Shown: positions 17,003-20,860, numbered from the stretch's first letter. The stretch: DNA of 40,159 bases from Kayfunavirus MT1B1P3 (OZ035815.1); one strand, 5' to 3'. Notes: generated from the letters alone by a model not told the origin. Program-made: numbers and translations.

Positions 17003-19174
17003 ATGTTTGACCTTAAGAGTATCTGGGGTTCTGACATCGAGACCAACGGTCTCCTTGATACAGTCTCCCAGTTTCACTGTGGGGTCCTGATTAACGCCGA
17101 GTCGAATGAGACCCTTAAGTATGGGGTAGCTCCGATGGTCGGTATCGTCGGTGGCTTCAAAGAGTATGTTCATAAAGTGGAAGAGATTGCCGCATCACCT
17201 GATGGTATGCTGGTATTCCATAACGGTATCAACTATGACGTCCCTGCTATAGACAAGCTGAAACGTCTGTACTTTGGGAAACGCTTTAACTTCCCGAAAC
17301 ACAAGATGATTGATACCTTGGTGCTGGGCCGCTTGATGTATCCAAACATTAAGTTCTCAGACATGGGCGCAGTGAAATCTGGTCGTCTGCCACCTAGTAT
17401 GATGGGACGTCAGTCTCTTGAGGCTTGGGGCTATCGTCTCGGTGAGATGAAGGGTGAGTACAAACACGATTACGTTGCCAAATGCAAGGCTGAAGGTATC
17501 GAATATAAGGCTGGGGACGAATGGTTGTTCCCGTCTCAGGAGATGCTGGACTATAACGTTCAAGACGTTGTGGTCACACTGGCGTTGTTCAAGAAGTTCC
17601 TGACTGACAAGTATTACTTCCAGTCTGAACAGTTCGCTTTCGACCAGATTTATGCGTTGCGTCTGGAACACGATGCTGCGTGGACCTGTGCGAAGATGGA
17701 GCGTAACGGCTATCCGATGAACACCGAGATGGTCGAAGGCTTATATCGTGAACTCACCGTCAAACGTGCAGAGTTGCTGGACAAGCTGCGTTCGACTTTC
17801 GGTAGCTGGTACGCACCAAAGGGCGGAAAGGAGTTCTTCAAGCACCCACGTACAGGCAAGGACCTTCCGAAGTATCCGAGAGTCGTGTATCCTAAGGTCG
17901 GTGGCATCTTTAAGAAGCCGAAGAACAAAGCTCAACGCTTAGGTCTTGAACCTTGTGAACGCGATACGCGAGACACGATGGAGGGAGCACCATTCACACC
18001 TATCACTTACGTTGAGTTCAATCCGGGAAGCGGGGACCACTTAGCGAAAGTTCTGATGGAGCGTGGCTGGGAGCCTGTGGACTTCACTGACACCGGGAAA
18101 CCTGTGGTCGATGACGAGACGTTAGAACACGTTAAGTTGCCAGACGAAGAGGCTCAGGCTTGCGTAGAGCTGGTCCGTGAGTATCTGGTAGTCCAGAAGC
18201 GCATCGGTCAGGCTGCTGAAGGTAAGAACGCATGGTTGAAACTTGTAGGTCCAGACGGACGTATGCACGGTTCAATAAACCCATGCGGGGCAGTAACCGG
18301 ACGTGCGACTCACAGTTCACCAAACATGGCTCAAGTCCCGGCTAACGGTGCTCCATACGGTGAGACTTGCCGTGGTGCTTTCGGTGCAGCTTGGAACAAG
18401 ACGGATGGTAAGCCAGACCCTTGGATTCAAGTAGGCGTGGATGCTTCAGGTCTTGAGCTTCGTTGTCTAGGGAACCGAGCGGCTCCGTTTGATGGTGGAG
18501 ACTATGCGAAGACTGTGGTCGAAGGGGACATACACTGGGCCAACGCAGTAAACGCTGGGTTAGCACCTAACGTCCCACGCGACAAGTCGAGCCACGACCA
18601 TGATGCTTTCCGTAATAACGCTAAGACGTTCATCTATGCGTTCCTGTATGGTGCAGGGGCCGCGAAGATTGGACTGATAGTTGGCGGTGGTAAGAAGGAA
18701 GGTTCAGCTCTCATGAAGAAATTCATTGAGGGCACACCAGCCATCAAGGACCTCAGGGAAGCTGTGAGTGATACGTTAATCTCAGACTCTAAGTGGGTGG
18801 ACGGAGAGAACATCGTCAAGTGGAAACGCCGTTGGTTGCGTGGACTTGATGGTCGGCGTATCCACATCCGGTCTCCACACTCAGCACTTAACGCCTTACT
18901 TCAAGGCGATGGTGCGGTAGTCTGTAAGCACTGGATTGTCGAGACTGAACGTATGCTCGAAGATGCCGGGTATGTTCACGGCTGGGAAGGTGACTTTGCG
19001 TACATGGCTTGGGTTCACGATGAGCTACAGATTGCGTGTCGTACTCAGGAGATTGCCGAAGAAGTCGTCAAGATTGCTCAACTTGCTATGCGTAAGGTGG
19101 GTGAGTTCTATAACTTTAAATGTGTCCTTGATACCGAAGGTAAGATTGGACCAACGTGGAAGGAGTGTCACTAA
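17003..19174 (+). CDS. 5: DNA polymerase (T7 gp5-like, family A with 3'-5' exonuclease)
   Basis: strong recalled similarity to T7 gp5 (SDIE.N.L, HNG..YDVPA, EAWGYRLGEMKGEYK, MDYNVQDVVVT, KYPR...PKVGGIFKKPKNKAQR, DASGLELRCL, DNAKTFIY.FLYGAG, FAYMAWVHDE); ATG at 17003 preferred (SD ggagg); ORF track starts at upstream GTG 16967. Confidence 0.95.
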   Translation: MFDLKSIWGSDIETNGLLDTVSQFHCGVLINAESNETLKYGVAPMVGIVGGFKEYVHKVEEIAASPDGMLVFHNGINYDVPAIDKLKRLYFGKRFNFPKHKMIDTLVLGRLMYPNIKFSDMGAVKSGRLPPSMMGRQSLEAWGYRLGEMKGEYKHDYVAKCKAEGIEYKAGDEWLFPSQEMLDYNVQDVVVTLALFKKFLTDKYYFQSEQFAFDQIYALRLEHDAAWTCAKMERNGYPMNTEMVEGLYRELTVKRAELLDKLRSTFGSWYAPKGGKEFFKHPRTGKDLPKYPRVVYPKVGGIFKKPKNKAQRLGLEPCERDTRDTMEGAPFTPITYVEFNPGSGDHLAKVLMERGWEPVDFTDTGKPVVDDETLEHVKLPDEEAQACVELVREYLVVQKRIGQAAEGKNAWLKLVGPDGRMHGSINPCGAVTGRATHSSPNMAQVPANGAPYGETCRGAFGAAWNKTDGKPDPWIQVGVDASGLELRCLGNRAAPFDGGDYAKTVVEGDIHWANAVNAGLAPNVPRDKSSHDHDAFRNNAKTFIYAFLYGAGAAKIGLIVGGGKKEGSALMKKFIEGTPAIKDLREAVSDTLISDSKWVDGENIVKWKRRWLRGLDGRRIHIRSPHSALNALLQGDGAVVCKHWIVETERMLEDAGYVHGWEGDFAYMAWVHDELQIACRTQEIAEEVVKIAQLAMRKVGEFYNFKCVLDTEGKIGPTWKECH

Positions 19175-19446
19175 TGGCTATGACCAAACGCCTGACCTGT
19201 AAGTTTGACATGAAGATTGTCTTTACGCCTGAGGACGTGGAGTCATACGTTCTTGAGCTGGTGAAGATTACCAAGGCTTATGTCTCCGGTGAGAAACTGG
19301 ATGGCATGGCACGGAAGCTGGTAGAGACTGCTGTAGAGCATGGGGTCGAAGCTGCTATTGAGCTGCACCTGAAGTCTATTCTGGCGTCACAACTGAAAGA
19401 CAAGTTGCAAGAGGTCTACAATATCAGCACGAGGTTCAAGCAATGA
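19174..19446 (+). CDS. 5.5: gp5.5-like protein (H-NS-binding protein in T7)
   Basis: starts MAMTK as in recalled T7 gp5.5 (MAMTKKFKVSFD); ATG overlaps DNAP stop (taATG) with SD ggaaggag; ORF track starts earlier at 19156. Confidence 0.6.
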   Translation: MAMTKRLTCKFDMKIVFTPEDVESYVLELVKITKAYVSGEKLDGMARKLVETAVEHGVEAAIELHLKSILASQLKDKLQEVYNISTRFKQ

Positions 19447-19652
19447 GTGAATACTTACGGGTCCTAGCGGCCCTTAAGTCCTGCCCGAAGACCTTCCAGT
19501 CCAACTATGTGCGCAATAACGCTGCACTTGTGGCTGAGGCTGCGAGTCGTGGACATCTAAGCTGCCTGTCTATGGATGGGCGTAACAACGGTGCGTGGGA
19601 GATTACTGCTGAAGGCACCAAGTTCCTGAACCAACACGGAGGCTGTCTATGA
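19443..19652 (+). CDS. 5.7: gp5.7-like protein
   Basis: 69 aa; MSEYLRVLAALKSCPKTFQSNYVRNNAALVAEAASRGH closely matches recalled T7 gp5.7. Confidence 0.8.
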   Translation: MSEYLRVLAALKSCPKTFQSNYVRNNAALVAEAASRGHLSCLSMDGRNNGAWEITAEGTKFLNQHGGCL

Positions 19653-19867
19653 GTCAAGACGTATCAGGCCGAGAACTTAAGGTAGGTCAAAAAGTTGCTT
19701 TCTGCCTAGCTGGTAAGTCATACGCTATGCGTATAGGGGAAGTAGCCCGGGTAATGCCAAAGTCGGTAGCCATCAAACACGAGACGTATATCCGCTGGAA
19801 GGGAATGACCGAGGAAGTCGAAACGGTACGTGCCTTCTCTTCAGTTTGCATCGTTGAGGAGGCATAA
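19649..19867 (+). CDS. hypothetical protein (72 aa) in the gp5.9 position
   Basis: ORF immediately before exonuclease; not similar to recalled T7 gp5.9 (RecBCD inhibitor). Confidence 0.45.
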   Translation: MSQDVSGRELKVGQKVAFCLAGKSYAMRIGEVARVMPKSVAIKHETYIRWKGMTEEVETVRAFSSVCIVEEA

Positions 19868-20733
19868 TGTCAGAGAAGAAAATAGCTCTGGTTCTGGATG
19901 GTGACTATCTGGTCTTCTCTTCTATGGCTGCTGCCGAGGACGAGACAGACTGGGGCGATGATATTTATACCCTTATCTGCGACCACGCCAAGGCTCGTCG
20001 TATCCTTGAGAACACCATCGCTGAAATCGTTAAGAAGCGCAAGGCGTGGAAAGACGCTAAGATTGTGATGTGCTTCACCGATGATGAGAACTGGCGCAAG
20101 TCCATCCTGCCTACCTATAAGGCCAACCGTAAAGGTTCTCGCAAGCCTGTAGGTTACAAGAAGTTCGTAGCCGAAGTGATGGCTGACCCACGGTTCAACA
20201 GCTTCCTGCGTCCTACGCTTGAGGGTGATGACTGTATGGGCATCATCGGGACCAGACCTCAGATTGTCGGATGTGACCATGCGGTTCTGGTGTCCTGTGA
20301 CAAGGACTTCAAGACCATCCCAAACTGTGAGTTCTTCTGGTTAACCACTGGTGAAATACTGAGTCATACGACTGCCGAGGCAGACTACTGGCACATGGAG
20401 CAGACCATCAAGGGTGACACTACAGATGGCTATGGCGGGATTCCGGGGATGGGTGAGGACACCACTCGTGTGTTCCTTGACGAGCCGTACTACTTCGTGC
20501 AGGAGAGCCGTGAGCTTAAGACTGGCAAGAACAAAGGCCAGATTAAGACTGAGTGGAAGAAGTATCCAAAGCGTGAAGACATGACGCTGTGGGACTGCAT
20601 GGTTACTCTGGCTGCTAAAGCTGGGATGACCGAGGAGGAACTTCTGGTCCAAGCTCAGGTCGCTCGTATTTGTCGAGCCTCCGACTATGACCCTAAGTCC
20701 AAGGAGGTCATCCTGTGGACACCACCCATGTAA
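19867..20733 (+). CDS. 6: 5'-3' exonuclease (T7 gp6-like)
   Basis: recalled similarity to T7 gp6 (DGD.LVF, CDHAKAR.ILE, NWRK...YKANRK..KKPVGY, SCDKDFKTIPNC.F, QTIKGD.TDGY.GI.G, LWDC....AKAGMTEE). Confidence 0.9.
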   Translation: MSEKKIALVLDGDYLVFSSMAAAEDETDWGDDIYTLICDHAKARRILENTIAEIVKKRKAWKDAKIVMCFTDDENWRKSILPTYKANRKGSRKPVGYKKFVAEVMADPRFNSFLRPTLEGDDCMGIIGTRPQIVGCDHAVLVSCDKDFKTIPNCEFFWLTTGEILSHTTAEADYWHMEQTIKGDTTDGYGGIPGMGEDTTRVFLDEPYYFVQESRELKTGKNKGQIKTEWKKYPKREDMTLWDCMVTLAAKAGMTEEELLVQAQVARICRASDYDPKSKEVILWTPPM

Positions 20734-20860
20734 TCTACTGGGCAGGACTTCTGGCCCTTTACTGCATGTACAAGTGGTTCGGGTCGAACAACCGCCCTAA
20801 ACACTGAGTCTAACCGATAGTCATATCCTATTAATCCCACAGTCATCCATAGGTGAAACA

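Follow-up and report, generated by a model that had tools for sequence, protein, structure and literature searches.

The RecBCD inhibitor genes of phages lambda and T7 stand beside recombination exonuclease genes (gam-bet-exo in lambda, 5.9 and 6 in T7). In T7, gene 5.9 lies between gene 5.7 and gene 6. Its product, gp5.9, is a very acidic protein that mimics the phosphates of DNA and forms a parallel alpha-helical coiled-coil dimer (PMC9836394). A second small phage protein is catalogued as PHROG 2251 and as Pfam DUF7205. It is about 70 aa long, and it includes EcoDS1 AS9_0028 and PaP1 gp034. Members of this family are named "hypothetical" or "uncharacterized" in every source, and no mention of PF23835 or DUF7205 was found in the literature searched.

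We analyzed one stretch of DNA from Kayfunavirus MT1B1P3 (OZ035815.1), which contains 40,159 nt and is called the window here. It is the nearly complete genome of Escherichia phage Mt1B1_P3 (Kayfunavirus; GenBank MT496969.1) at 100% identity and in the opposite orientation. It encodes a 72-aa protein in the position of T7 gp5.9. An earlier note on this DNA had suggested that this protein might be an alternative RecBCD inhibitor or another antidefense protein. The protein is a plain member of PHROG 2251/DUF7205, a family of phage proteins listed with no assigned function.

The 72-codon ORF and its neighbors

The ORF was read directly from the sequence. It runs from an ATG start to a TAA stop at positions 19649 to 19867 on the plus strand. 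It is listed in MT496969.1 as hypothetical protein QNJ49148.1. Its Shine-Dalgarno sequence (GGAGG, 19638 to 19642, plus strand) lies 6 nt 5' of the ATG, inside the 3' end of gene 5.7. Gene 5.7 (19443 to 19652, plus strand) encodes 69 aa with 77% identity to T7 gp5.7 and matches phrog_1334 (E 1.3e-38). The gene before it (19174 to 19446, plus strand, with the start codon as annotated in the GenBank record) encodes a divergent 90-aa homolog of the H-NS inhibitor gp5.5. It matches phrog_1452 ("Gp5.5-like") at 6e-19 and has 27% identity to T7 gp5.5 (E 5e-6). Directly 3' of the ORF is gene 6 (19867 to 20733, plus strand), which encodes a 5'-3' exonuclease of 288 aa (phrog_107 E 4.1e-79; Pfam 5_3_exonuc_N 3.5e-9). 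The layout is the one that the earlier note described, with recognizable gp5.5 and gp5.7 and the ORF directly before the exonuclease gene.

The three genes overlap. The TGA of gene 5.7 overlaps the ATG of the ORF (ATGA), and the TAA of the ORF has one base in common with the ATG of gene 6 (TAATG). The Shine-Dalgarno sequence of gene 6 (GAGGAGG, 19856 to 19862, plus strand) lies within the last codons of the ORF and encodes its ...VEEA end. With overlapping starts and stops and an embedded ribosome-binding site, gene 5.7, the ORF, and gene 6 are packed for coupled translation. The ORF is coupled in translation to gp5.7 on its 5' side and to the gene 6 exonuclease on its 3' side.

Among Kayfunavirus alleles, the dN/dS of the ORF was 0.15. 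Over the same genome pairs it was 0.07 for gp5.7 and 0.06 for gp6. The ORF is thus a real gene under purifying selection. Homologs in the same slot with 43 to 52% identity were present in T7-like contigs whose DNA polymerases were 53 to 56% identical and whose gp6 proteins were 51 to 59% identical. DUF7205 is an old resident of the gp5.7-gp6 slot that diverges in step with the core replication genes. In a paralog search with the DUF7205 HMM, the window contained a single copy, and T7, K1F, and TH16 contained none.

Family membership

The ORF product matched phrog_2251 over its full length (residues 2 to 71; E 3.7e-20). Its assignment to DUF7205 is based on precomputed Pfam matches (PF23835.2). 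PF23835 is recorded, with no mark of a weak or faint match, on proteins 79 to 93% identical to the ORF product and on the representative of its own cluster. A Pfam-A scan gave no PF23835 match for the ORF or its close homologs, and the precomputed record has PF23835.2; the two evidently use different Pfam releases. NCBIfam contained no model matching the ORF.

HMMER, run exhaustively against 1.84 billion cluster representatives, retrieved 42 clusters (50% identity) at an E value of ≤0.001. Nearly all of their members are stand-alone proteins of 63 to 84 residues. In an alignment of 41 members, D4, V16, and K38 were invariant and G7, G13, and R61 were nearly invariant. The conserved polar residues were mostly basic (R/K8 in 76%, K/R34 in 76%, K38 in 100%, and R61 in 98%), plus the invariant D4. 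The beta3-beta4 hairpin was highly variable and contained indels. The pI of the family is mostly 7.7 to 9.8, which is neutral to mildly basic.

The ORF product has the traits of this alignment. It stands alone, is about 70 aa long, and has D4, G7, G13, V16-A-F-C, K38, and R61. It has the motif D-x2-G-[RK]-x-L-x-V-G-x2-V-A-F-C...P-K-T-V...R...V-C-x-V in common with the family. Its barrel model aligned to the BFVD model of the Henu5 DUF7205 homolog with a TM score of 0.82, and no difference of substance from the family was seen. The earlier note had named a match to a known unrelated family, along with no effect on RecBCD, as grounds against its reading. Such a match was found, to a family with no assigned function. 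Gene and family both have database entries already (a GenBank hypothetical protein, Pfam DUF7205, and PHROG 2251), and the finding is an ordinary one.

In the phage collection, tblastn retrieved about 27 records from enterobacterial phages with identities of ≥60%, most of them Kayfunavirus. The DUF7205 query also matched 131 Pseudomonas records. Most of these came from Pakpunavirus myoviruses, among them PaP1 (gp034) and PAK_P1. The gene was also present in a small number of Drulisvirus and Warsawvirus podoviruses.

Comparison with T7 gp5.9

The ORF and T7 gene 5.9 have three features in common: the position between gene 5.7 and gene 6, the small size of the product, and the class II transcription context. 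The proteins differ in charge. The ORF product has a pI of 8.68 and a net charge of +1.6, compared with 4.08 and -8.5 for T7 gp5.9. They also differ in predicted architecture, with an all-beta barrel in the ORF model and a parallel coiled-coil dimer in gp5.9. The ORF product has no acidic DNA-mimic surface, and its model contains no coiled coil.

The gp5.9 family is Pfam PF25708 and, in PHROG, phrog_9014, phrog_6234, and phrog_4790. BLASTP gave no alignment between the ORF product and T7 gp5.9. The ORF did not match PF25708 (Phage_T7_Gp5_9) at an E value of ≤1, and the positive controls matched it at 2.4e-6 (T7 gp5.9) and at 1e-15 to 1e-17 (slot homologs). Comparison of the DUF7205 family profile with gp5.9 in hhalign gave a probability of 0.2%. 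A divergent gp5.9 is ruled out by Pfam, BLAST, hhalign, charge, and fold. The earlier note was right that the protein does not resemble the acidic gp5.9. Both computational checks that it proposed were run: homology searches did not place the protein in the gp5.9 family, and structure prediction gave an all-beta barrel and no gp5.9-like DNA mimic. Because the protein is neutral to basic and predicted to be all beta, DNA mimicry of the gp5.9/Gam type is excluded.

A gp5.9 gene relocated within the genome was also considered and rejected. In the six-frame translation of the window, neither an HMM built from five homologs nor tblastn with four variants gave a match. The best E value for T7 gp5.9 in tblastn over the window was 0.24.

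Predicted fold

The AlphaFold2 model of the ORF product was built from a 16-sequence alignment. It had a pLDDT of 86.7 and a pTM of 0.74, and it contained five beta-strands and one 4-residue helix. The model confidently predicts a generic SH3/Tudor/KOW-like small beta-barrel. Its best structural neighbors were Tudor domains (Sgf29, PHF19, TDRD3), KOW domains (Spt5 and the NusG C-terminal domain), PWWP domains, and ribosomal protein eL21. Tudor, KOW, PWWP, and eL21 domains are nucleic-acid- or protein-binding modules.

The ORF product was 10 to 20% identical in sequence to such small SH3-like barrels (Tudor, KOW, PWWP, eL21, and PF24203), which is a resemblance of fold and not family membership. 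Foldseek against the PDB gave weak eL21 matches at most. A sequence-profile search of the PDB gave nothing significant (best E 0.025). Links to characterized DNA- or RNA-binding families at the sequence level were limited to subthreshold Pfam matches at most. The 41-member alignment contained no conserved aromatic cage, and the protein is not a Tudor family member. A NusG-KOW mimic, suggested by the G-x2-V...G...V pattern, was rejected; hhalign gave 0.16% against the NusG C-terminal domain, and there was no Pfam KOW match. A relative of the ProQ C-terminal domain was rejected as well (hhalign 0.85%). PF24203 (Phage_ProQ_C_like) matched the ORF below threshold, at 14.2 bits and an E value of 0.072 (gathering threshold, 27 bits). 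It also matched 12 of the 41 family members below threshold (best E 1.6e-4). We treat these matches as an echo of the fold and not as membership.

Contents of the gp5.7-gp6 slot

We classified the content between gp5.7 and gene 6 at 80 IMG/VR loci with a gp5.7 homolog. The sample was not dereplicated. The slot was empty (gap of ≤41 nt) at 24 of the 80 loci (30%). It contained phrog_2251 beta-barrels at 21 of the 80. Nineteen of these were a divergent type of 66 to 111 aa, and two were of the window type; one locus (L024) contained a tailed form. A basic protein of 58 aa (phrog_12303) was present at 16 loci, an acidic protein of 127 to 150 aa (phrog_4382) at 9 loci, and an acidic protein of 94 to 121 aa (phrog_18166) at 8 loci. 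True gp5.9-family proteins were present at 6 loci (PF25708 E 4e-15 to 3e-17; PHROG "host RecBCD nuclease inhibitor"). A 42-aa Zn-ribbon ORF was present at 2 loci. Some loci contained two cassettes; where DUF7205 was present, it was the single cassette. It shared the slot with gp5.9 at 0 of 21 loci, compared with gp5.9 at 6 of the 59 others, a difference that is not statistically meaningful.

The gp5.9 slot is real. It is a replaceable accessory position and a hotspot for cassettes, and DUF7205-type barrels are its commonest occupant in this sample (21 of 80 loci, compared with 6 for gp5.9). That the ORF occupies the same slot as T7 gp5.9, as the earlier note had it, is confirmed by the true gp5.9 homologs in the gp5.7-gp6 gap of the 6 related loci. 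In the type phage K1F and in ASO2B, gp5.7 directly abuts gene 6. Together with the 24 empty loci, these phages indicate that the content of the slot is replaceable and dispensable. The ORF itself is dispensable, as K1F, T7, and most relatives lack it.

Neighborhoods and tails of DUF7205 genes

In Kayfunavirus and in more distant T7-like phages, DUF7205 is located directly 5' of a FEN-type exonuclease gene. Other lineages have other neighbors. One locus (L110) contains a DnaB-like helicase, DUF7205, and an ATP-dependent DNA ligase in that order, with overlapping starts. Another (L112) contains DUF7205 followed by a DNA ligase, a metallophosphoesterase, a T4 Rnl1-type RNA ligase, and a kinase. 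DUF7205 is immediately 5' of the ligase gene in a 105-kb phage (L102) and immediately 3' of it in a T7-like contig (L100). In PaP1 it is two genes from the dCMP deaminase and ligase genes. One Warsawvirus encodes the ligase, then DUF7205, then a dNMP kinase. One Drulisvirus encodes an RNase H/FEN protein, a small ORF, DUF7205, endonuclease VII, and polynucleotide kinase. What these neighbors have in common, judged from gene order, is that they encode enzymes for processing or sealing nucleic acid ends.

Some DUF7205 proteins carry C-terminal tails. The protein of phage vB_EcoP_SP7 (P0084) ends in a tail, ...LMPATVAMATGGLDDGF. Its end resembles the tails of gp2.5 and gp4, which are acidic and terminate in Phe (...EDGDF and ...DTDF in T7, and ...GDYDF and ...EASDF in the window). 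In T7, these two tails serve to dock their proteins on the DNA polymerase. By analogy, the tail hints that these slot proteins may dock on the replisome. Other variants (P0018 and P0058) have a Cys-rich or Zn-ribbon tail, and the allele in the window has no tail. A tail of the form ...(S)LMPATVA(M/V)ATGGLDDGF is present on two unrelated slot proteins, the SP7 DUF7205 protein and a 149-aa acidic protein (L013:2207-2656 and similar loci).

Coexistence with gp5.9 in Pakpunavirus

Pakpunavirus PaP1 encodes both families. Its DUF7205 gene (gp034) and its gp5.9-family gene (gp080) were both examined directly. The latter encodes 65 aa (NC_019913, 52124 to 52321; L113:2501-2698) and matches PF25708 with an E value of 2.7e-12 and 46.9 bits (cutoff, 24.5). 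In tblastn, a gp5.9-type query matched 121 Pseudomonas phage records, compared with the 131 matched by the DUF7205 query. At least 12 named Pakpunavirus genomes were common to both lists. Since both genes are present in Pakpunavirus, the two families are not redundant there.

The PaP1 gp080 protein, annotated as a hypothetical protein, clearly belongs to the family of T7 gp5.9. The gp5.9-type tblastn query also matched Xanthomonas, Bacillus, and Roseobacter phages. With the Pseudomonas matches, these indicate that the gp5.9 family reaches well beyond the T7-like phages and is mostly unannotated there.

Chi sites

The window contains nine Chi octamers (GCTGGTGG), a density about that of the Escherichia coli chromosome. 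Six are on the plus strand (449, 5708, 11175, 13235, 31352, and 33811), and three are on the minus strand (11412, 26427, and 30869). Dinucleotide shuffles gave an expectation of 1.5. Synonymous shuffles that preserved the proteins and the codon usage gave 3.3 ± 1.4, and 0 of 1,000 shuffles reached nine.

Three other DUF7205-positive Kayfunaviruses contained 6 to 10 Chi sites. Five other Kayfunaviruses, including K1F, contained 6 to 10 (z of 2.8 to 4.7). K1F, in which the slot is empty, had 8 (z of 4.7). T7, which encodes gp5.9, had 7, all on the plus strand (z of 1.8). Chi content was considered as a proxy for the lack of a RecBCD inhibitor and was rejected, because counts were similar with gp5.9, with DUF7205, and with an empty slot. 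The Chi excess is thus not tied to the slot gene.

Possible functions

The reading that we prefer, tentatively and at less than even confidence, is that the ORF protein is a dispensable accessory of DNA-end processing that binds nucleic acid or an enzyme. Binding to DNA, or to an enzyme of the replisome or of end processing, is the function that we infer. The barrel would be made with the middle (DNA-metabolism) genes and be translationally coupled to the gene 6 exonuclease. Within the replication-recombination-repair module of the phage, it may bind where DNA has a nick, a flap, or an end. The conserved face (Asp4, Arg/Lys8, Lys/Arg34, Lys38, and Arg61) would contact nucleic acid or an acidic partner, and the protein may assist or regulate the 5'-3' exonuclease/ligase step.

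Several results were counted in favor of a role at DNA ends. They are the recurrence of end-processing neighbors in unrelated phage lineages, the 1-nt overlap with gene 6 and the location of its Shine-Dalgarno sequence inside the ORF, and the small-barrel model with its Tudor, KOW, PWWP, and eL21 neighbors. The mostly basic conserved residues with the family pI of 7.7 to 9.8, the acidic Phe tail of SP7 with the Cys-rich or Zn-ribbon fusions, and the divergence in step with DNA polymerase and gp6 were counted in the same direction. The presence of a gp5.9-family protein beside DUF7205 in Pakpunavirus indicates that the role of DUF7205 differs from that of gp5.9. Synteny is suggestive and not proof, since DNA-metabolism genes cluster in small phage genomes. 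The net charge of the ORF protein, slightly positive at most, was counted against a role at DNA ends. So were the failure to link it by sequence to any characterized DNA- or RNA-binding family and the lack, in the window allele, of the tails that some variants carry. So was the hypervariability of the slot, whose one characterized occupant (gp5.9) acts against the host; this favors a host-directed role. No essential enzymatic step depends on the ORF, as the gene is missing from K1F, T7, and most relatives.

Close to the DNA-end role, and almost as likely, is the possibility that the protein is a host- or defense-directed binder other than a RecBCD inhibitor. The barrel would bind and neutralize a host protein, for example, a defense nuclease, a protein that senses replication intermediates, or a factor for host repair or transcription, and it would be kept solely by phages that meet that host factor. 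This would suit a hypervariable slot that contains at least seven alternative cassettes or is empty, and a dispensable gene that is cleanly absent from K1F and ASO2B. The occupant of the slot in some relatives (gp5.9) and the fixed neighbors (gp5.5 and gp5.7) are all host directed, and the variable beta3-beta4 hairpin with its indels would suit a target-specificity loop. Counterdefense genes are reported to be abundant in phage accessory regions and in hotspots at recombination loci (10.1101/2023.04.06.535777; 10.64898/2026.07.10.737580), which is consistent with a host-directed product of this slot. The roughly clock-like, long retention in the slot and the dN/dS of 0.15, with no arms-race signature, argue against it. 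Repeated adjacency to ligase, FEN, and polynucleotide kinase genes would be unexpected for a generic antidefense gene. The ORF sequence was absent from the supplements of two phage accessory-gene screens, and an anti-defense catalogue preprint names no antidefense fold of the SH3, Tudor, or barrel type. A nonhomologous replacement for gp5.9 is improbable. Such a protein would inhibit or redirect RecBCD by protein contact (like Abc2, with no DNA mimicry) or would shield DNA ends. The ORF is in the exact position of true gp5.9 homologs in relatives, the window contains no gp5.9-like sequence elsewhere, and RecBCD inhibitors typically adjoin phage recombination exonucleases. DUF7205 and gp5.9 were also never found together in the slot, a pattern that is not statistically meaningful in the 80 loci. 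Set against these points are a protein that is neither acidic nor helical, which excludes the gp5.9/Gam mechanism (PMC9836394), the coexistence of gp034 and gp080 in PaP1 and the ≥12 named Pakpunavirus genomes in both tblastn lists, and the empty slot in 30% of relatives, K1F included. DUF7205 also adjoins DNA ligase, FEN/RNase H, or polynucleotide kinase genes in other lineages, and Chi content does not distinguish gp5.9-positive T7 from Kayfunaviruses that are DUF7205 positive or have an empty slot. The idea of a shared slot in the earlier note stands, and its suggestion of a RecBCD inhibitor is not supported; nothing favors the latter beyond the position and the lack of gp5.9 in the genome, and charge, fold, PaP1, empty slots, and other genomic contexts argue against it. 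Least probable is a spurious or decaying ORF, for example, a spacer that merely carries the ribosome-binding site of gene 6. The ORF is short, and gp5.7 abuts gene 6 in many close relatives. It has its own Shine-Dalgarno sequence, a dN/dS of 0.15, a confident AlphaFold2 fold, a family of 42 clusters (50% identity) in which D4, V16, and K38 do not vary, and same-slot retention at 43 to 52% identity across deep divergence, all of which oppose this reading. The conservation data already effectively rule it out.

A broader proposal, which we consider rather unlikely, is that DUF7205 is an unrecognized class of small-barrel factors for DNA ends and nicks. Its members might be nonmimic inhibitors of a host nuclease that depends on DNA ends (RecBCD or a defense nuclease). 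They might otherwise be clamp-less adaptors that link the phage exonuclease and ligase to the replisome by way of the sites where the gp2.5 and gp4 tails dock. If true, such a class would explain both the alternation with gp5.9 in the T7-type slot and the travel with ligase, FEN, and polynucleotide kinase genes. A proven, defined role for DUF7205 would matter, because it fills the gp5.9 slot more often than any other family in our sample and is also conserved in about 130 Pseudomonas Pakpunavirus genomes of the therapeutic type. The slot is a compact set of mutually replaceable cassettes beside an exonuclease gene (gp5.9, DUF7205, three other families, and Zn-ribbon mini-ORFs). A gp2.5-like acidic Phe tail is present on several of these proteins. 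The slot may be a tractable place in which to find new modulators of DNA-end metabolism or of host nucleases.

A small ORF at the end of gene 6

The window contains a hydrophobic ORF of 30 codons (MDTTHVIYWAGLLALYCMYKWFGSNNRPKH) at positions 20715 to 20807 on the plus strand. It is unannotated in MT496969 and has no Pfam match. It overlaps the end of gene 6 and is placed like T7 gene 6.3 and EcoDS1 ORF AS9_0030.
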